64,000 nucleotides of DNA. Source: a virus (taxonomy: Duplodnaviria > Caudoviricetes). Below, in pieces: positions 10,545-46,931 of this stretch. The translations under genes and the position numbers were made by a program. Under the pieces are notes generated by a model. It was not told the DNA's origin. It saw only the letters and a list, made by a program, of their open reading frames with translations, and made no database searches. Position 1 is the first letter of the stretch, and every line of letters starts with the position of its first letter. The stretch spans positions 22,583 to 86,582 of IMG/VR virus record IMGVR_UViG_3300006226_001703. One strand, written 5' to 3'.

Positions 10545-10808
10545 TTATGCAAGAAGGTCCCTTTCCTTGCCATTAGTCTTCTCAATGGCAGCCTGGATGG
10601 TACCGGGGAACGCCGTCATAAAATGAGTTGCGGCGTTAAAAGCGTTTTCTCTCCGCTTTCCCTTGATTACGACATCAAGAATCTGGTCATTATCTGACCG
10701 GAGAATTGATGCCTCAGTAGCGAGGCCAAAAGGCAAAGTGCGAATTGCGTTATGCATATCCGTGAAGCCATTCTGTGGCCTGTCAATCTTAATAGTTACT
10801 GTAGTCAT
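10545..10808 (-). CDS. Hypothetical early protein (start revised to 10808)
   Basis: The ORF-track N-terminus overlaps a conserved promoter; SD agggag precedes ATG at 10808 (MTTVTIKID); GC-richer codons. Confidence 0.6.
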   Translation of the reverse strand: MTTVTIKIDRPQNGFTDMHNAIRTLPFGLATEASILRSDNDQILDVVIKGKRRENAFNAATHFMTAFPGTIQAAIEKTNGKERDLLA

Positions 10809-10833
10809 ATCTTGTCTCCCTTTAACTTGATAA

Positions 10834-10867
10834 TAATATATAAGATGGGCAGAAATAGTGTTCAAAA
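10834..10867 (-). promoter_or_regulatory. Class I (sigma70-like, early) promoter TTTTGAACA-N14-CTTATATATTA
   Basis: Same bipartite motif and spacing at 22731-22764 and 44393-44426. Confidence 0.75.
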
Positions 10868-20736: not shown

Positions 20737-20765
20737 TATTTATCCTCCAATAAGATATAAGACAT

Positions 20766-22375: not shown

Positions 22376-22406
22376 TAATATATAAGAATCACTGATTTTA
22401 TCTAAC
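22376..22406 (-). promoter_or_regulatory. Class I-like early promoter (CTTATATATTA box)
   Basis: Identical -10-like box upstream of moxR; -35 less conserved. Confidence 0.5.
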
Positions 22407-22727
22407 GACAATGTCGGAATTCTTCCTAGAGAATCTGTTGCGGAAATATGCAAGTGCTTCTTCAAATGAGACATGACGGATATGTTTACAACCGTTCTCA
22501 TTATTCCAAAGAATTGGCGTGCATGATGTTATGTTGAAATTTCGACCGTAAGGGTCAGGCCTTTTAGTTAAACAGCGGACTACGCCATTTTTGTAAAAGA
22601 CATAAGTTTTGTGTTTTACGCCAAAGTCAAAAGCGAAAGTGCCATTATTAAGTTGTCTCTGAGTTGAGATAAACTTACCGTTACATTCATTGGCCAATTC
22701 ATTGGCGAGTTTTATTTGGTTTTCCAT
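22398..22727 (-). CDS. Hypothetical early protein (probably leaderless)
   Basis: 109 aa; ATG follows the promoter box by 3 nt with no SD. Confidence 0.65.
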   Translation of the reverse strand: MENQIKLANELANECNGKFISTQRQLNNGTFAFDFGVKHKTYVFYKNGVVRCLTKRPDPYGRNFNITSCTPILWNNENGCKHIRHVSFEEALAYFRNRFSRKNSDIVVR

Positions 22728-39036: not shown

Positions 39037-39847
39037 CTAATTCCTCCAACTTTCTCGAAAAACTTTCTATCATTGTTATCTTGTCAGTGAATGATTTGAT
39101 TCTCTCGAGGCCATAATGTTTACCCAAGAAAGATTCAAGCTCATCAGTAATCTCTCTGTTAACTACCAAATCATGAAGTTCAATTAAACTGTCTGATATT
39201 CCAACGTATGTTCCTTTTAAGAATGGCTTAACTTTATGAAGTCCACCCATTATAGTTCCAATAACATGATATTCACTGTAACAAATATTGTCATCATCAT
39301 CTCTAAAAAGATATTTTGGCTCGATAACTATATAGTTGTACAATGCATAATCATCATTTTGTAATCTTCTATTTCTAATATAATGTCCTGGAACTTCAGT
39401 TTTACTTTCACCACTTTTGACAGTTACAATGTTACCATCAGATGTGAATGAAAAGCCCTGCTCAAATAATGAGGACAATAAATAGTTAAATGGAATTCTA
39501 GCATCAAGAAGTTTTTTGATAAACTTAACACCATATTCAATTCTAAATCCATCATCCATTTCGAGAAGAGTTTTAATCTCTAATGCTAATCTATTATCCA
39601 ATGTGAAGTATTTTCCATTGTAGAAGACTTCAATTTCATCAGAGCCTTTTTCTTGTGTAAATGATATCTCATCATCTTCATAATTAAATGATCGATTTAT
39701 AATTATCATTATTTCACTTAATGTAGTTTTTTCTCTGTGTAAAATTTCAGCAATTCTGTTGAATCTTTTATCCCCTCTCGAGACTTGTAATATCTCTTTG
39801 CCAGTTGGGATAACTATTGCTTCATCAGTCAAAATATAGTTTAACAT
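39005..39847 (-). CDS. rIIB: rIIB-like protein
   Basis: Downstream of rIIA; F.KKLL...FSFTSDGNIVTVK resembles the rIIB ITxDGxxxAYK motif. Confidence 0.6.
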   Translation of the reverse strand: MLNYILTDEAIVIPTGKEILQVSRGDKRFNRIAEILHREKTTLSEIMIIINRSFNYEDDEISFTQEKGSDEIEVFYNGKYFTLDNRLALEIKTLLEMDDGFRIEYGVKFIKKLLDARIPFNYLLSSLFEQGFSFTSDGNIVTVKSGESKTEVPGHYIRNRRLQNDDYALYNYIVIEPKYLFRDDDDNICYSEYHVIGTIMGGLHKVKPFLKGTYVGISDSLIELHDLVVNREITDELESFLGKHYGLERIKSFTDKITMIESFSRKLEELGVPMDTIFAS

Positions 39848-42321
39848 AATTTCTCCACATTTGCTACATAATCCACCACTATTTGGAAAGCTTCCTTAGT
39901 TTCAAAAGCTCTTCCAGAAAAGTTTTGAGTCACTTTTAACATTGGGTACTTGTTGAACATATCAGTTATGTAATCTGTTCTTGCTGAGTTGTCAAAATTC
40001 TTAATTATGATATCAAGTCCAACAAGTTTTTTCATTATGTCCTTGTGGACTTTTGTATCATAAAAAGTTCTGTAGGTGTTATTCAGCATTTTAGTTAAAG
40101 TATTCCACACAGATAATTGTCTGGCTGAACCAGTTTCCTGAGTTTTGATTTCCTCTAATCTTCTAATTGCTTCCTTTCCAAAAGCTGTGTCATTAAAACC
40201 AACATATTTGCTACCAAGTTCAAGAACATATTCTGCTGACTTAGTGTAATCAAATATTGAATAACCATACAAGATATGGGTAGTCATATAAGTGACTATC
40301 TTATCAATATTTGCGCTCACTTGCTTAATGAAGTAATCATCAATGTAAGTCCAGTTTTTGTTTTTCATTATGTTCGCATTCTTGAAATAGTTGTAACTGA
40401 TCATTAAGTGATGAGCTGGTTGCTGAATAAAGTCACGAATATAAGTATTCTTCAACATTGAGTGCTTGTTGTACTCGGAGTTTATCATCACACCTTTTTG
40501 CTCGATTGTGAATGCCTTATTTCTGGGCAGTTTTGGATTGGCTTTCAGATCCTTAAAGTTTGGGTTTATCCAATATCCTCTCTGGTCAACCTTTCCCTCG
40601 AATAACTCGTACGTAGTATTAGTCAGCTTGAGGGCGTCTACTGGGTCAATATATTTACCGGATATTGCATCATAGACTGTGTAGCTGTCCTTGTCATCCG
40701 CCAGAGTGGCTGATTTAGGCACCCTGGGCTTCGGAACTTTAATTGGGACGAATGATGAAGTTTTCTTTGAGACAAACTCTGGGAACATTTTAGTTATGAT
40801 TTCAGAAGTCTTTTCATCTACGAAAATTGATTCCCTAATGTTTATGTCGTTCATTAATTGGAACTTATTCTCTAAAATAGCGGGAATTAAAGTCCAGTAC
40901 TTCTTTTTTGCTGCTGCCTTACCAAAAAATGCGTCGAGCCTTTCCTTAACTAATGGTTCATCAATAATAAGTAAAGTGTTATATTCACCCTTCATTATTG
41001 CTTTGCCCAAGTCATAAACATAATCTTCGCCTTTTGTGTTGCTTGCACAGTAAACTGGAATGTTAGTAACTTCAAAGCGATTATTACGACGGGCTCTGGG
41101 CTTATACATATAAGTACCAGTTATGAGTTTATTAGTTATATGCTGCTCAAATTGCTTGTTTATTTGCTTGAACTCTTCAATTTCGTCAAACTCACCAACT
41201 AATATTCTGGGAAGGTGGGGAATGTTATTTCTGTTCTTGATGAAATTATTTGGAGTTGAAGCCTTCTTAACAAAGTCAGCCTTAAACTCATTGAAGTCCT
41301 TGTGGAAAATATCCTTCAGATATTCAATTGTAGTTTTGCTATAATTTAAGCTTTCTCTTGAAGGCTGGATTGAAACTGCTCCAATTGGAATGTGAATGAG
41401 CTTCTTAAACTCTGTGTCATACCTTCCATGAACGGCTGGAAAGTTGATGCTAATTTTACAAGCATTCTCTGTCTCAGTGTTTATGAGTTGAGTTACATTT
41501 ACATCATAATACACTTGGCCCATTACTACACCGTGAGTGCTTCCATAACTCTTCAATATTTTGGATAAGAAGTTCCAAGTGTCAGAAGTCTTATTTAACT
41601 CGTTGTAATTCTTAACGAAATTACGAGTTGCTTCATAAATAGCGGGGCCATCCTCAGCTGTTTTCTTTGTCATGTAGTCAAAGAAAAGAGATGCCATGAC
41701 GTTGTAAAAGTCCTCTTCTCCACGAACTATCAAAGGCATTTTATCAAAGAAGAGAAAAGTTTTCAAAGCTGCTTTGTGAAAGTTTTGAGTGTCCTCAGGT
41801 TTAACAAGCACTTCAACACTTGTTCCAGTTTCATTAAAAGCCTCGGAAGTGTTTACTCGATTGACATTAGGAATTCCATTTGAGTCTTTATAGATTATGT
41901 ACTGATTTCTTTCACCATCTTTTGCAGTAGTCAAAGTAAATTGCTGAGTGTATGCGAGCGGAGTTTTTCCACCGAGTCCAAGAGCTCCAATAACTTTGTC
42001 GCTGTGTGATTTAGTTGACTTGCCGTATGACTTATAAACTGTCATAACATCATCATGAGTCATACCAATACCATTGTCTTCAATTATGAGCGAGTTAAAC
42101 TGATGGTTTGGAAGATAAACTTTAATTGGTTCAATATTACCCGCTTCAATGTTTGCATCTATCGCATTACAAGAAAGTTCCCTCACGATTGCTCTGATTG
42201 GGTCTTCATAAATCTTGCTTGACAGAATATCAAACATTTTGCTATTAGCGGCAATAGTAAACTCGCTGCTTTCATTTTCAAGGCAGTTAGTTACATCATA
42301 AACTTTGTCATTTAACTTCAT
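39841..42321 (-). CDS. rIIA: rIIA-like protein (GHKL/Hsp90-like ATPase N-terminus)
   Basis: MFDILSSKIYEDPIRAIVRELSCNAIDA, IEDNGIGM, STKSHSDKVIGALGLGGKTPLAYT. Confidence 0.88.
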   Translation of the reverse strand: MKLNDKVYDVTNCLENESSEFTIAANSKMFDILSSKIYEDPIRAIVRELSCNAIDANIEAGNIEPIKVYLPNHQFNSLIIEDNGIGMTHDDVMTVYKSYGKSTKSHSDKVIGALGLGGKTPLAYTQQFTLTTAKDGERNQYIIYKDSNGIPNVNRVNTSEAFNETGTSVEVLVKPEDTQNFHKAALKTFLFFDKMPLIVRGEEDFYNVMASLFFDYMTKKTAEDGPAIYEATRNFVKNYNELNKTSDTWNFLSKILKSYGSTHGVVMGQVYYDVNVTQLINTETENACKISINFPAVHGRYDTEFKKLIHIPIGAVSIQPSRESLNYSKTTIEYLKDIFHKDFNEFKADFVKKASTPNNFIKNRNNIPHLPRILVGEFDEIEEFKQINKQFEQHITNKLITGTYMYKPRARRNNRFEVTNIPVYCASNTKGEDYVYDLGKAIMKGEYNTLLIIDEPLVKERLDAFFGKAAAKKKYWTLIPAILENKFQLMNDINIRESIFVDEKTSEIITKMFPEFVSKKTSSFVPIKVPKPRVPKSATLADDKDSYTVYDAISGKYIDPVDALKLTNTTYELFEGKVDQRGYWINPNFKDLKANPKLPRNKAFTIEQKGVMINSEYNKHSMLKNTYIRDFIQQPAHHLMISYNYFKNANIMKNKNWTYIDDYFIKQVSANIDKIVTYMTTHILYGYSIFDYTKSAEYVLELGSKYVGFNDTAFGKEAIRRLEEIKTQETGSARQLSVWNTLTKMLNNTYRTFYDTKVHKDIMKKLVGLDIIIKNFDNSARTDYITDMFNKYPMLKVTQNFSGRAFETKEAFQIVVDYVANVEKLC

Positions 42322-42336: not shown

Positions 42337-42370
42337 TAAGATATAAGATCATTTATCATAAAGGACAATA
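42337..42370 (-). promoter_or_regulatory. Class I-like early promoter (TTGTCC ... CTTATATCTTA)
   Basis: TTG falls at the same offset as in the three canonical copies. Confidence 0.55.
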
Positions 42371-42777
42371 TTACCAAATTCTTCCTGGATGTTTCTAATT
42401 CTATCTGAAGAATTCATACCTTCAAAATCAAATATTTCGTGGATTCGCTCATGCGTTCGATAATTACATAGTAATATGTAGCAAGATTCATAGGAGTCTA
42501 GTATCGACTGTTCTGAGTTTTTTTCCCACTGCCATCTTTCAAAAATTTCGCCAATTTCATAAATATGATGTTCAGTTAAATTTGTGCTTCTCTTTTCTTT
42601 TTCTAAAACTAAAAAACCGCGACTCTTTGCTAATCTTCTAGTTACATCTCGTAGTTTATTCTTGATTAGACTGTGAGGGGTTCCACCTGCAACATGTCTT
42701 TCATAACAGTTGCAGATGTGGTTCCGATAATCCTCATAGTTCATGAGGGATAAGTTCTCCAATAGTTGGGTGGGCAA
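42349..42777 (-). CDS. HNH-like nuclease
   Basis: NLTEHHIY...YILLCNYRTHERIH. Confidence 0.5.
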   Translation of the reverse strand: MPTQLLENLSLMNYEDYRNHICNCYERHVAGGTPHSLIKNKLRDVTRRLAKSRGFLVLEKEKRSTNLTEHHIYEIGEIFERWQWEKNSEQSILDSYESCYILLCNYRTHERIHEIFDFEGMNSSDRIRNIQEEFGNIVLYDK

Positions 42778-44390
42778 TTTTCCACTTGTTTTTCAACTAC
42801 TGTCATTTGAGCTTTGGAAAATATCCTTTCAATTGGCAAGTCAATTTCGTCACAGTAGGACTTGATGATTTTGAAGTCCACATAGTTGGCGAGGCTTGTA
42901 CCAAGTGAAATATCCTTTGTCAGTTTTTTCTTGTCAAGAGCAAGTTCAACCTTCTCGATATTTGCTTTGGCTTTTTCCATTTGAGTTACTAACTTTGCTT
43001 TTGCTGTTTTGATTTCGTCCAGTTTCTCTTTGAGAAGTTTAGGTGTACCAGCATACAAAGTTTTGAACTTATTTGCTTTTTCATCAAGTTTGGTAACCTT
43101 TCCAGCATGAGCGGCTTTAATAGTTTTCACCCGCTCTTTTGCTCTCTTCACTCTCTCAGCAATTTTCTGCTCGCCTTCCTTCTGGTTTTTGCCAACATTT
43201 TTCTGATGATTCAAAGTTTTTGCAATTTCCAAATTGGCTTCAAATATTGCTCTAAGTTTTTCAGCATCAGTATTTGCCTTAGTAACTTTTTTAGTTTTCA
43301 GGCTGTTGACGAGCACCTCGTTACAAACGACAGTGCGGAGGTTCTTAACGGTCGCTCCTGGCTGGATTCTCTTGAGGTAACTATTTACATTGACATTGGG
43401 GCGGAAGATCCGCTCACCAGCCTTGAGTGCCTTGAGACGCTTTGATAGGAAGGCATGGACAGTAGGCTGAACGGAAATAATCCGCTGGTCAGGTACTGAA
43501 TCCTTTCCAAGAAAATCAAACTGAATCTCGTTATTTGGTAGAACACTGAGATGCTGAAACTCTAAAGTCTGCATCCCATAAGTTAGGGCTTGCTTGTTTT
43601 CGTCTCTCTCATTACCGATACGAATGCCAGTCTGCATAATCAAGTAAATGATAATTGCTTCATCAGTACCAGCAGCGCATCCCTTGTCAATGGCTGTGTT
43701 TATGTTTGCCCAATTTTTGAGAATATCAGAAGTTTTGTCAAACTTGCCAGTTATGTTTTCCTGTCTCAGTGAAACTTTGCCATGGAAAGTAACTGTCTTA
43801 TTCAGAGCGGGAAAACCCATTTCCGGCCTTCCACATTTGATTTTGTAACTGTAAACCCAAATGGCTTTGTTGTCAGTGTTGTAGACGATATCGCCGGGCT
43901 GGACACGATATTTCCAAGAGAATTTTCTGGGGTCCTTTCCGCGAGTCATAATCCAGTTAGGGGCTTCAACCATGTAAGTAACGAGCGGCTGGCGAACTCC
44001 ATCGAGAAGCGCATATCCGAACTTCTCTTTGAGTCCTTCCTTCAACTCTTTTACACGGACTTTGTCGATTTTTGAGGATTCTTTCGTAATCTGCTTAATT
44101 GCCTCTGCTGCCCTCTTCATGTTTTCCATGAGTGGAATGAAGTCATTGGGGAACGACAGTTTCTGCTGATTGACTGTGAGTTCCGGTTTTAGACATTTCC
44201 ACATATTCTTGTTTGAAGAGTGAAAGGCTTCTTTTTCGTAATCGCTGCCCAAGAAACGAGCCGCCATCCAAAGCATCTCTTCTGCGAGAGGAGGGAGCTT
44301 TTCGCCAGCAAGATCGTACCCCTTAGTTCGGTACTCTTCTGGAAATAGCGGTCCATCATATTGTAGCGTTTTGAAACGTTCTGTTTTCAT
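42741..44390 (-). CDS. top1: DNA topoisomerase IB, eukaryote-type (core I-III, coiled-coil linker, C-terminal Tyr domain)
   Basis: LQYDGPLF, GIRIGNE, FDFLGKDS, KNLRT, LNHQK, linker, ISLGTSLANYVD..PIERIFSK; the R-K-R-H-Y pentad is present. Confidence 0.93.
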   Translation of the reverse strand: MKTERFKTLQYDGPLFPEEYRTKGYDLAGEKLPPLAEEMLWMAARFLGSDYEKEAFHSSNKNMWKCLKPELTVNQQKLSFPNDFIPLMENMKRAAEAIKQITKESSKIDKVRVKELKEGLKEKFGYALLDGVRQPLVTYMVEAPNWIMTRGKDPRKFSWKYRVQPGDIVYNTDNKAIWVYSYKIKCGRPEMGFPALNKTVTFHGKVSLRQENITGKFDKTSDILKNWANINTAIDKGCAAGTDEAIIIYLIMQTGIRIGNERDENKQALTYGMQTLEFQHLSVLPNNEIQFDFLGKDSVPDQRIISVQPTVHAFLSKRLKALKAGERIFRPNVNVNSYLKRIQPGATVKNLRTVVCNEVLVNSLKTKKVTKANTDAEKLRAIFEANLEIAKTLNHQKNVGKNQKEGEQKIAERVKRAKERVKTIKAAHAGKVTKLDEKANKFKTLYAGTPKLLKEKLDEIKTAKAKLVTQMEKAKANIEKVELALDKKKLTKDISLGTSLANYVDFKIIKSYCDEIDLPIERIFSKAQMTVVEKQVENCPPNYWRTYPS

Positions 44391-44392
44391 AA

Positions 44393-44426
44393 TAATATAT
44401 AAGATTAACTAAAATTATGTTCAAAA
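44393..44426 (-). promoter_or_regulatory. Class I early promoter TTTTGAACA-N14-CTTATATATTA, leaderless to top1
   Basis: Third copy; ATG 2 nt after the box. Confidence 0.75.
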
Positions 44427-44468: not shown

Positions 44469-46931
44469 ATGGCAGGCCCAGTAAATTTATATAAAGAATG
44501 GAAAGTACCTCTTTCAAAAAGTAATTATAGACCAGTTGCTGTTCAAGCTTCAATGTTTGATTTAATGTTTTATTATGATAGTGAAAATGTAATTCGACCA
44601 AGATACACTCCAGTTCAGTCTATAACTAACTTTAGAAATGTTGGATTGACTTTACAACATAACATAATTGCATTTGATGAGAAAGCTTATAGAGTTCCAG
44701 ACAGTTCAAGAGGGGAATTGCCAAGAGGCTATAGGGTGCTATCTCCTGAAGTCAATGTTCAAGAAGAATATGAAGATATGGAATCAACTCAAGTCTCATT
44801 TGAAAGATGGTCTAAAATTGGGTTCGATATTGCATTGCCAAAATTTGATTCTAGACATAAACCATCATTAATAACTGTTAACAATTATGAAAAAGCTATA
44901 GCAAAAGATTTACAACATTATATCGATTATGAAACTTTTTTAATGAGAGGTGTTGATGAAAATATAGTTTTCCCATTTGATGCAGAAGTGACTTATGAAG
45001 AAATTATTGATTTCTTAAATTTAATGCCATTTGCTACTAATGATTTCTTTTATAATCCAGCGCTTAATAAAGAAACATCTATAACTATAAATACAGCATT
45101 TAAAGTTTTCAATAAAAATGCTGCTATTAAATTTACTAATACCCATGAAGTTTACACTAATTCAATTCTATTTACATCTGATATAAACCAAGATAATTAT
45201 AACACTTGGACAGATTATAGCGATCCTTACACTGTGGCATCTGAAAATGATTTATTAGACGCAATAAATGCTGATATTATTCTTTGTGGAAAAGACTTAA
45301 ACTTTGAAGAGAGATTTTTAGAAGAAGATTCTGGATTTTCTGCATATAATGCATTATGCTTAAACATGCGTTCACCAAGAGTTTGGAGAAACTTTTTTAG
45401 ATATTACAATTCTAGATTTAATTTTGATGAAAGAATTTCATTAAATGATTTTCTAACTGGACCATTAGTTCACTTAGAAGCTGGCAATGTAAACAGAATG
45501 AATCCAATTCTTGCTTTCATGTTAAAAAATTGTTATGTATGGGTTAAGTGTTCATTCTTTGCTGATTATATTGATTATCAAGATTTCGATCAATATCTAA
45601 ATAAAGAAGCTGATGTAATTCATAAGAATATGATTTTAACAAATTATGGTGATTTTAGAAAATATTCTGGTAGATTTTCTGATAGAAACGCAACAGTTTT
45701 AGAGGATTCATTTAAAGATAGTAGAGCATATATTCCGGTAACTACACCATCAGTAGATATTTTAGCAGACAATTTATTGCCTTTTAATCCAAGATTAAAA
45801 ACAATGCCATTAGAAGAAAAAATAGATCTCATTATTGATGATTCACATAAAACTGAAAGTAAAATTGGCTCTCTTCCAATTGAGCCGTTTGTTATTGGCT
45901 CAGGTGAACATAACATAACAGCTCAAGTAACAAATGGATATCCACCAGTTTGGTTTGACCCTGATGGAAGAACTCCAGCTGAGGATTATAATGATGAACC
46001 AACTTTAATGGGAAAGTCTGGTAACATAATCACTAGCGGAAGAGTTATATCACCAACTATAGACGAATTGTGGATAATGATTAAGAGGCTAGTTGAAGGT
46101 AGAAAACCAAGTGACTATCAAATAACTGAAACTAATGAAGATGAAACGGAAGAATTAGAAATTGGAATCCTCGGTTACCCAAGAGGGAAAAATGAATTTG
46201 ATACATCTATTAAGCTTAAGAAACATCGATTTGAAGTTGATAATAAAGAAGTAATTGGCGACCCAATTGATATAGCTTACACATTTGATAATGACTTTAG
46301 AAGAGGCGAATTTGAAGTTAAATCTTGGGTTGATACTCCAACTGATATTGAATACGTTTTAATGAAGGAACTAATTGAAGTTAACACTGATATTTGTGCT
46401 GGTATAATGAACCCAGAATTATTGAACAGAATTAGAAATATGCCATCTCCTGAGTTCTACAAGCCATTCGTGGACCCACTTTCATTAAGAGAATTAGAAT
46501 CACTCATTAAGGGCTTGAGATGGAATTTAGCATATTACATGACTTATGTTAAGAATGTTAAAGTGTTTAATGGTTCAATTAAAAGAAGAAATAGTGATAC
46601 ACAATTAGATGAATATAATAGACCAATTCCAGTTCCTTATAATCTTGCAGCTGGCGGCTTATATCAATTACATAAAGATTATGAAACAGATGATAGCAAA
46701 AAACCTGGTAATTGTTTCTATAATCCAAATACAATATATGATGAACGATATAATCGAAATGAAGCTCCATCTGATGCTTGGGGCACTGGTGTTGCTAAAA
46801 TTGGAGTGGATGAATTCTCATCAAACAAAGAAGTTATTCCAGCATGGAGTGTTTATATGGCAGCAGATGGAACTTGGCATTCAAGTAGACAGGCATTATT
46901 AGTACCACTTAGAAACGATGAGAAATGGTAG
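44469..46931 (+). CDS. Large virion structural protein (baseplate/tail-associated candidate)
   Basis: 820 aa, SD aggag, plus-strand late block, aromatic and acidic composition. Confidence 0.55.
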   Translation: MAGPVNLYKEWKVPLSKSNYRPVAVQASMFDLMFYYDSENVIRPRYTPVQSITNFRNVGLTLQHNIIAFDEKAYRVPDSSRGELPRGYRVLSPEVNVQEEYEDMESTQVSFERWSKIGFDIALPKFDSRHKPSLITVNNYEKAIAKDLQHYIDYETFLMRGVDENIVFPFDAEVTYEEIIDFLNLMPFATNDFFYNPALNKETSITINTAFKVFNKNAAIKFTNTHEVYTNSILFTSDINQDNYNTWTDYSDPYTVASENDLLDAINADIILCGKDLNFEERFLEEDSGFSAYNALCLNMRSPRVWRNFFRYYNSRFNFDERISLNDFLTGPLVHLEAGNVNRMNPILAFMLKNCYVWVKCSFFADYIDYQDFDQYLNKEADVIHKNMILTNYGDFRKYSGRFSDRNATVLEDSFKDSRAYIPVTTPSVDILADNLLPFNPRLKTMPLEEKIDLIIDDSHKTESKIGSLPIEPFVIGSGEHNITAQVTNGYPPVWFDPDGRTPAEDYNDEPTLMGKSGNIITSGRVISPTIDELWIMIKRLVEGRKPSDYQITETNEDETEELEIGILGYPRGKNEFDTSIKLKKHRFEVDNKEVIGDPIDIAYTFDNDFRRGEFEVKSWVDTPTDIEYVLMKELIEVNTDICAGIMNPELLNRIRNMPSPEFYKPFVDPLSLRELESLIKGLRWNLAYYMTYVKNVKVFNGSIKRRNSDTQLDEYNRPIPVPYNLAAGGLYQLHKDYETDDSKKPGNCFYNPNTIYDERYNRNEAPSDAWGTGVAKIGVDEFSSNKEVIPAWSVYMAADGTWHSSRQALLVPLRNDEKW

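Follow-up and report, generated by a model that had tools for sequence, protein, structure and literature searches.

The 64,000-nucleotide stretch of DNA analysed here (hereafter the window; positions 22,583 to 86,582 of the IMG/VR virus record IMGVR_UViG_3300006226_001703, assigned to the Caudoviricetes) carries on its minus strand an intact gene for a topoisomerase IB (TopIB) of 549 amino acids (aa). This gene is preceded by a promoter-like element and stands between a homologue of rIIA, downstream, and a divergently transcribed gene for an 820-aa protein, upstream (Table 1). Judged by its sequence, domains, catalytic residues and predicted fold, it is a complete long-form TopIB, and the encoded enzyme is probably active as a topoisomerase. 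Our overall interpretation, to which we assign a probability of roughly 80%, is that this functional long-form enzyme serves as the own swivel of a lineage of ~330-kb phages, and that it is old, vertically inherited and a member of a distinct phage clade. An earlier, sequence-only reading of the window had placed a full-length eukaryote-type TopIB of a bacteriophage at 42741-44426. The proposal itself is borne out by the sequence, the three Pfam domains, the residues, the predicted fold and the jumbo-phage context, whereas the interval has to be shortened to the open reading frame (ORF) given in Table 1, its last nucleotides taking in the upstream promoter-like region.

The full set of three Pfam domains known from eukaryotic Top1 is present in the protein, each well over its curated cut-off (79.4 bits versus 25 for Topoisom_I_N), including Topoisom_I_N and Topo_C_assoc, the two for which a check had been suggested. 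The Topoisom_I_N profile starts at residue 5 of the phage protein, which has no long charged N-terminal domain of the eukaryotic kind. In a HMMER alignment, the residues R257, K296, R352, H395 and Y503 correspond to the human R488, K532, R590, H632 and Y723, and all five are invariant in an alignment of 78 long TopIBs from the phage, archaeal and eukaryotic clades. Equivalents of the residues by which human Top1 contacts camptothecin (R364, D533 and N722) are present in the phage enzyme as well, namely R150 (in the cap), D297 and N502. The HMMER alignment further reproduced every match to human Top1 that had been noticed by eye (LQYDGPLF/LEHKGPVF, KEKFGYALLDG/LKEYGFCIMDN, GIRIGNE/ALRAGNE, the identical FDFLGKDS, LNHQK/CNHQR and LGTSLANYVD..PIERIFSK/LGTSKLNYLD..PIEKIYNK), and the lysine-rich coiled-coil linker claimed together with them is also found, with 23 lysines in 88 residues and two antiparallel helices in the predicted structure. 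In sequence searches against the PDB, the best match was the archaeal long TopIB 6z01 (E-value 1e-38), followed by human Top1 (~5e-34), the poxvirus TopIB reaching only 6e-5. Neither Pfam nor Foldseek found recombinase-type accessory domains in the phage TopIB.

Table 1. Coordinates of the features discussed in the text (window positions unless a contig is named; aa, amino acids; AF2, AlphaFold2; ORF, open reading frame).
Feature	Position	Strand	Evidence or remark
Long-form topoisomerase IB gene, 549 aa, intact	42741..44390	-	ORF, ATG start, Pfam, PDB matches, AF2, Foldseek
N-terminal DNA-binding cap, core subdomains I/II, aa 5-176	43863..44378	-	Topoisom_I_N PF02919 3.6e-22; yeast Top1 fragment 1ois
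Catalytic core, aa 207-426, with R257/K296/R352/H395	43113..43772	-	Topoisom_I PF01028 1.3e-34
Lys-rich antiparallel coiled-coil linker, aa 403-490	42921..43184	-	AF2 helices; 23 Lys/88 residues
C-terminal domain, aa 476-529, putative active-site Tyr503 (codon 42882-42884) in LGTSLANY	42804..42965	-	Topo_C_assoc PF14370 2.6e-14
Promoter-like element: TGAACA (44423-44418), 18 nt, TATATT (44399-44394)	44391..44426	-	Consensus scan, sigma-70-like
Copies of the 12-mer	10834-10845, 20751-20762, 22376-22387, 42337-42348 (before rIIA), 44393-44404	all -	Motif scan
Further copies of TCTTATAT(N)TTA	G000 13908 and 45324		Motif scan
rIIA homologue, 826 aa, conserved downstream neighbour of TopIB	39841..42321	-	phrog_612 7.5e-87
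820-aa protein, divergently transcribed, conserved upstream neighbour	44469..46931	+	41% identity to L003 neighbour
142-aa ORF between TopIB and rIIA, 37-nt overlap with TopIB 3' end	42349..42777	-	ORF call
Phage GroEL	L004:14769-16418	-	phrog_5725 4e-104
Split TopIB, 309+270 aa, own Shine-Dalgarno before second gene	L002:6001-7799	+
Split TopIB, 306+263 aa	L026:2995-4744	+
C-half of split TopIB, no N-half directly upstream	L025:2986-3777	+

The structure predicted by AlphaFold2 from a 78-sequence alignment (mean predicted local distance difference test score, pLDDT, of 95.6; predicted TM-score, pTM, of 0.87) points in the same direction. The linker is modelled as two long antiparallel helices (residues 403-445 and 450-490, pLDDT >90), and it is included in the superposition of the model on the human structures 1a36 and 1k4t. 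In Foldseek searches, the whole model matched these closed human Topo70-DNA complexes with query TM-scores (TMq) of 0.84 (1a36, root-mean-square deviation (rmsd) 3.0 Å) and 0.83 (1k4t), the human Topo70-DNA complexes together giving TMq values of 0.83-0.84 over ~580 columns, E-values of 1e-27 to 1e-31 and rmsd values of 3.0-3.7 Å. By comparison, the short bacterial and poxviral TopIBs aligned over only ~250 columns (TMq 0.26-0.34), and the matches to tyrosine recombinases were weak. The TM-score to the archaeal 6z01 is low (0.49) because that crystal form is open and the phage model closed. In the ESM Atlas, the TM-score to a chordate Top1 is 0.86, and proteins of this kind cluster there under 'Uroviricota' labels.

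A sequence scan of 1.84 billion representatives returned 1639 matches, 106 of them below 1e-30, and a FastTree phylogeny of 153 long TopIBs (<70% identity) showed three large groups, with 71 of the 153 in the phage clade. A more careful tree was then computed with IQ-TREE (75 rows, 549 columns, LG+C20+F+G4 with posterior mean site frequencies, PMSF). In this tree the presumed eukaryotes (100/100), whose member P0165 scores 532 bits against human Top1, group at 99/98 with the Thaumarchaeota (100/99), which are anchored by NCBI-named Nitrosopumilus sequences. A single branch, with support of 89/93 and present in 88% of the bootstrap trees, separates the phage (V) clade from the other sequences, and within this clade the window protein is nested at 100/100, 99/89, 100/97 and 99/90; it thus lies inside its own clade of phage context, and not among the short bacterial TopIBs. 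In approximately unbiased (AU) tests under LG+G4, holding the subclade of the window protein together with the archaea costs 256 log-likelihood units (p-AU 7e-6), and holding it with the eukaryotes costs 279 (p-AU 3e-65), so that both groupings are rejected. Consistently, the identity of the phage TopIB to archaeal and eukaryotic enzymes is only ~25-31%, and it scores 121-137 bits against either of them, whereas the eukaryote-type P0165 reaches 329 bits against the archaeal 6z01.

Eukaryotic giant viruses also carry long TopIBs. When IMG/VR sequences were included in the tree, the phage clade (47 rows, support 98) comprised no giant-virus sequence, while all giant-virus bins and the isolate records of 617,453 and 1,259,197 bp formed one clade (99) inside the eukaryote supergroup (99). 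To the earlier statement that the long form is typical of eukaryotes and Thaumarchaeota it has to be added that the nucleocytoplasmic large DNA viruses (NCLDV) have it too and group with the eukaryotes, not with the phages. Rooting with twelve Motura-type outgroup proteins (see below) kept the V clade monophyletic and outside archaea plus eukaryotes (SH-aLRT 78 with LG+G4 and 91 with PMSF). The other, non-V side of the root had no support, and we therefore treat the tree as unrooted. As far as the sequences tell, the phage-borne long TopIBs are a large and diverse clade, distinct from the thaumarchaeal and the eukaryote-NCLDV clades; the window enzyme itself has all the long-form features of sequence and structure that we tested, and stands outside the eukaryotic, thaumarchaeal and short bacterial/poxviral subgroups.

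The surroundings checked for scattered phage-clade members look phage-like. L006 has UvsX along with a homing endonuclease, L007 both an exonuclease and a helicase, L011 a DnaG-type primase, and L012 ThyX and Clp amid small ORFans; the member L002, with 299,025 bp, exceeds in length all other contigs of the metavirome it comes from, which was prepared from virus particles of termite gut (PMC5759034). The contig L006 deserves a separate mention, for its 647-aa phage-clade TopIB lies on a scaffold of 940,564 bp (ENA ERZ28612970) with mostly ORFan neighbours, and this scaffold may represent a phage of very large size, an assembly of concatenated sequences or something different. Other viral TopIBs fall outside the phage clade. 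The viral contig L077/G010 (IMG/VR 3300044799_000154, 121,517 bp, 92% complete) has a Terminase_6N match and a TopIB that branches within the Thaumarchaeota; unlike the deep phage clade, this contig may belong to a tailed virus of archaea that took its TopIB from the host. There is also the 'I' group (L023, L029 and L052, on viral, non-giant-virus IMG/VR contigs of 62-178 kb), which branches between the phage and the archaeal-eukaryotic clades and scores 315-334 bits against human Top1, far above the phage clade; within this group, G009 has a terminase match.

Close relatives of the window gene are found on other long contigs. TopIBs 54-64% identical to it occur on contigs of 174, 328 and 329 kb, as well as on IMG/VR contigs including G002, which has 329,018 bp, direct terminal repeats and a completeness of 100%; the TopIB of G003 (261 kb) is identical to that of the 328-kb ENA contig. 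The gene order (divergent protein of ~800 aa)-TopIB-rIIA recurs in L003 and in the 328-kb ENA contig, which are independent assemblies and those in which the flanks were readable (in the complete genome G002, the presence of the orthologue was counted). The window flanks are orthologous to those of L003, the rIIA proteins sharing 43% identity and the upstream proteins slightly less (Table 1), and the TopIBs, at 61-64%, are better conserved than their neighbours. In addition, GroEL diverges between these contigs (identities of 63, 59 and 58%, and of 43% in the case of the 299-kb contig) in step with TopIB. The parallel divergence and the better conservation of TopIB fit vertical inheritance in these phages, and the conserved synteny with orthologous neighbours in independent assemblies excludes chimerism, which the sequence-only reading had pointed to as a danger.

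The window is part of an 86,582-bp record flagged as 'provirus' and estimated to be 26% complete, which implies a genome of ~330 kb. Besides rIIA, the record encodes DnaB, a clamp loader and amidase/endolysins, all as claimed earlier, together with a Dda-like helicase, an SbcC-like nuclease, an RnlA-type RNA ligase, GroEL and baseplate/tail proteins; tRNA genes were looked for and not found. Many genes are preceded by Shine-Dalgarno sequences, and one peptidoglycan hydrolase has a CW_7 repeat; the peptidoglycan hydrolases indicate a bacterial host. The contig is a fragment of a tailed jumbo phage. Because the Pfam profiles for the capsid (Gp23) and the terminase (Terminase_6N) found no match in the closest complete relatives, including G002, the virion type is based on the baseplate/tail matches and the T4-like accessory genes. 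Among GTDB genomes there was no close relative of the TopIB, only three small contigs of metagenome-assembled genomes (MAGs) at 25-31% identity and without host signal. The GroEL belongs to a phage-specific lineage, at most 31-34% identical to named bacterial GroELs, which co-occurs with TopIB on contigs of 174, 299, 328 and 329 kb; a GroEL of identical sequence is found on a 183-kb contig, and a longer assembly of this phage therefore exists. As for the immediate neighbours of TopIB, the 820-aa protein has no Pfam or PHROG match. The same holds for the product of the 142-aa ORF, whose position is empty in the relatives, where the gap between TopIB and rIIA is only ~30 nt.

The promoter-like element lies directly before the TopIB gene. 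Its TATATT, 3 nt away from the ATG, is part of a conserved 12-mer, TCTTATATATTA (44404-44393), and there is no Shine-Dalgarno sequence before the gene. Five copies of this 12-mer are present in the window, where 0.19 would be expected, all of them on the minus strand and just upstream of genes, including rIIA and TopIB. The layout TTGAAC..N17..TATATA followed by an ATG within 3-6 nt is conserved upstream of the TopIB genes of L003, L017 and L020. This arrangement suggests transcription by a host polymerase of the sigma-70 type, which would start at the promoter abutting the start codon and give a leaderless or near-leaderless TopIB mRNA, and it is compatible with early expression. Of the 'early promoter' proposed before, the conserved sigma-70-like element directly before the ATG is thus confirmed, the word 'early' being derived from sequence alone.

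The same motif bears on the base composition of the gene, which had been noticed to be richer in G+C than its surroundings. The TopIB ORF has 42.1% G+C versus 33.7% for the window (30/60 in the line 43321-43380, as reported), and its G+C content at third codon positions (GC3) is 0.438, compared with a mean of 0.26 and a standard deviation of 0.075 over 97 ORFs (z ~ +2.4). The seven genes directly behind TCTTATAT(N)TTA have a mean GC3 of 0.418 versus 0.247 for the other 90 ORFs (Mann-Whitney p 1.3e-5, in a post hoc comparison), and the TopIBs of the relatives show the same positive GC3 offset, which tracks the composition of each genome. Since a high GC3 is common to all seven genes behind the motif, the raised G+C is no evidence of foreign origin, and with the offset also kept in the relatives we rejected it as a signal of transfer. 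The motif-bearing genes appear to be a promoter class with a codon usage of its own. As a separate observation, the genes at 10545-10865 (minus strand) of the window and at L004:13031-13870 (minus strand) are preceded by the same 28 nt, TCTTATATATTATTATCAAGTTAAAGGG, after which both have AGA before the bases diverge. Both are GC3 outliers (0.43 and 0.557, the latter the highest of the record) without family match, and they may be a duplicated cassette.

By analogy with human Top1, for which the controlled-rotation mechanism is established, the phage enzyme would clamp around duplex DNA and nick one strand with Tyr503, forming a 3'-phosphotyrosyl intermediate with the assistance of R257, K296, R352 and H395. 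The DNA would then swivel by controlled rotation before religation, so that both positive and negative supercoils could be relaxed without ATP or Mg2+. As to the role of this activity, the profiles PF00521 (GyrA/ParC), PF00204 (GyrB) and PF01131 (type IA), which respond in 12-14 control genomes, found no match in G000, G002, G003 and G011, among which G002 (same subclade as the window TopIB) and G011 (split form of the enzyme, see below) are complete genomes. As no type IA or IIA topoisomerase can be recognised in these complete relatives, TopIB is most likely the phage's own swivel for replication and transcription, and we propose that it is transcribed early from the promoter described above.

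Several explanations compete with this interpretation, and they differ widely in how well they accommodate the data. That a cellular or giant-virus TopIB was misjoined into a phage contig is what one might fear from a metagenome assembly with a 'provirus' flag and a completeness of 26%. We regard this as having a practically negligible chance in view of the conserved gene order, the orthologous neighbours, the orthologue in the complete G002 and the fact that TopIB shares its promoter motif with rIIA and with further genes on the contig. Hardly better placed, and in our opinion very improbable, is a recent horizontal acquisition from a thaumarchaeon, a eukaryote or a giant virus, for which the G+C and GC3 excess and the archaeal enzyme as best PDB match could be invoked. 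The GC3 excess is shared with the relatives and with all seven promoter-motif genes, the identity to cellular enzymes is low, orthologues better conserved than their neighbours occupy the same position in independent assemblies, and the AU tests reject both groupings, which excludes a recent cross-domain transfer. Of the two origins that the sequence-only reading had left side by side, transfer or deep lineage, it is therefore the deep phage lineage that is favoured.

A more substantial competitor is an ancient capture, in which phages received a long TopIB once, long ago, from a cellular source (archaeal or proto-eukaryotic), and fast evolution then gave it an artificially deep position. Phage genes do evolve fast, the end branches of the V clade reach 1.6-1.7, the non-V side of the outgroup root is unsupported, and the 'I' sequences, some of them on viral contigs with terminase, lie between the phage and the cellular clades. 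Yet the clade is very diverse (close to half of the representatives in the FastTree phylogeny) and spread over phage contigs of different size classes, and the Motura-type outgroup leaves it monophyletic and outside archaea plus eukaryotes; we consequently hold an ancient capture to be conceivable but rather doubtful. As regards function, an active enzyme could have a main role other than swivelling, such as host takeover (relaxing or nicking the host chromosome, transcription shut-down), the processing of DNA ends or concatemers, or anti-defence. In T4, rIIA is an exclusion- and defence-related gene, and the phage TopIB gene adjoins a rIIA homologue; the promoter-like element would suit the host RNA polymerase, the fold is shared with tyrosine recombinases, and G006 keeps a split TopIB in spite of a type IIA topoisomerase. 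Such a role nevertheless seems improbable to us, as the full cap, linker and clamp match non-specific relaxing enzymes, as the phage TopIB has no recombinase-type accessory domains, and as a swivel is needed in complete relatives without any other recognisable topoisomerase. The interpretation that we prefer thus remains that of an old, vertically inherited phage enzyme acting as swivel.

Some observations nonetheless weigh against this preferred interpretation. On the side of function, the activity of the phage TopIB is deduced from residue conservation and a predicted structure, and the promoter timing and the leaderless start are read from the DNA alone. Furthermore, G006 (386 kb) has a type IIA enzyme besides its split TopIB, so that TopIB is not always the sole topoisomerase; the window genome being only ~26% complete, its remainder could encode a further topoisomerase, and the Pfam profiles could miss divergent ones. 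On the side of phylogeny, the branch that sets off the V clade is moderately supported, and the phage clade consists mostly of unlabelled proteins from metagenomes, the context having been checked for about a dozen. The basal rows P0123 and P0194 lie outside these checks, and the context of the basal lineage P0017/P0034 consists only of L013, a contig of 10,964 bp from the bin of a Patescibacteria MAG.

The phage clade, with its complete Top1 architecture, changes the distribution of long TopIBs, bacteria and their viruses having previously been credited only with the short form, and it adds a third lineage to any tree on the origin of eukaryotic Top1. One may go further and speculate, at rather long odds, that it is a third major lineage of long TopIB residing in large phages and as old as, or older than, the split between archaea and eukaryotes/NCLDV. 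The cellular long TopIBs, eukaryotic Top1 included, could then derive from a virus-borne ancestor and not from vertical archaeal-eukaryotic descent, as the 'out of viruses' idea for topoisomerases would have it. The conventional mechanism and the unrooted tree moderate the weight of our finding for topoisomerase evolution. At the level of the phages, the data suggest that some of those with genomes of ~300-390 kb may handle the topology of replication by means of a eukaryote-style swivelase and not of a T4-type topoisomerase II. From a practical point of view, these small enzymes without N-terminal extension, probably easy to express, and their natural two-subunit versions could be used in studies of clamp and linker dynamics and of camptothecin-type poisoning.

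Full-text literature searches yielded no description of a long TopIB in bacteriophages, and the one passage of Kazlauskas et al. (2016) that matches type-IB terms does not mention phages. In a tblastn search of 50,697 deposited phage records, the only match was Achromobacter phage Motura (aa 211-395 of the query, 30% identity). Phage homologues, which if widespread and known would have spoken against the earlier inference, are numerous in metagenomes and were found neither in papers nor in deposited phage genomes, and the lineage of phages with long TopIB is apparently undescribed, although its sequences are already in databases. The Motura protein (QDH83578.1, 541 aa; phrog_23460; L010:598-2223, plus strand) is, like the window enzyme, a jumbo-phage protein with a PF01028 core. 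It differs in lacking Topoisom_I_N and Topo_C_assoc and in having an unrelated, uncharacterised N-terminus of 290 aa. Motura-type proteins are a second, separate family of phage TopIBs (~540-560 aa, on contigs of ~200-240 kb), to which P0280-P0388 also belong.

Among well-known enzymes, long TopIBs have been reported from eukaryotes and Thaumarchaeota, and short forms from viruses and bacteria (Brochier-Armanet et al. 2008, PMC2621148). The phage TopIB shares with human Topo70 (1A36, 1K4T, 1RRJ) the order of cap I/II, core III, coiled-coil linker and C-terminal tyrosine domain, as well as the catalytic R-K-R-H-Y set and equivalents of the camptothecin contacts, with only 19-23% identity in the structural alignment. 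It starts at the cap, whereas eukaryotic Top1 has its long charged N-terminal domain and belongs to a separate clade. Similarly to the phage enzyme, the archaeal long TopIBs (Thaumarchaeota; Caldiarchaeum subterraneum, 6Z01/6Z03) have ~540-560 aa, three Pfam domains and no N-terminal extension, but the level of identity is that given above for cellular enzymes, and the Thaumarchaeota group with the eukaryotes and not with the phage clade. The long TopIBs of giant viruses (Nucleocytoviricota; IMG/VR records and GVMAG bins) are likewise virus-encoded and full-length (~540-600 aa); they are 24-30% identical to the phage TopIB, come from viruses of eukaryotic hosts and fall into the eukaryote supergroup. 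The short TopIBs (vaccinia/variola 1A41, 2H7F and 3IGC; Deinococcus 2F4Q and 3M4A) have the fold and the chemistry of the catalytic domain in common with the phage enzyme, but with their ~310-350 aa they have neither the cap subdomains I/II nor the linker, and their sequence E-values to it are 6e-5 to 4.5e-4.

Finally, in related phages of ~300-386 kb the long TopIB is divided between two adjacent genes, and many N-halves of ~300 aa and C-halves of ~265 aa occur among the matches of the sequence scan. The pair of L002 is sister to P0012, near the subclade of the window enzyme (98/92). These split forms are interrupted within the catalytic core, at position ~83-85 of the Pfam profile, which puts the first arginine on one chain and the lysine, arginine, histidine and tyrosine on the other. 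The kinetoplastid heterodimeric TopIB (Leishmania donovani, 2B9S) is, like the split phage forms, made of two polypeptides, whereas the window enzyme is single-chain. The kinetoplastid break falls between the core and the tyrosine-bearing C-terminal domain, so that kinetoplastids and phages have divided the long TopIB at different positions.

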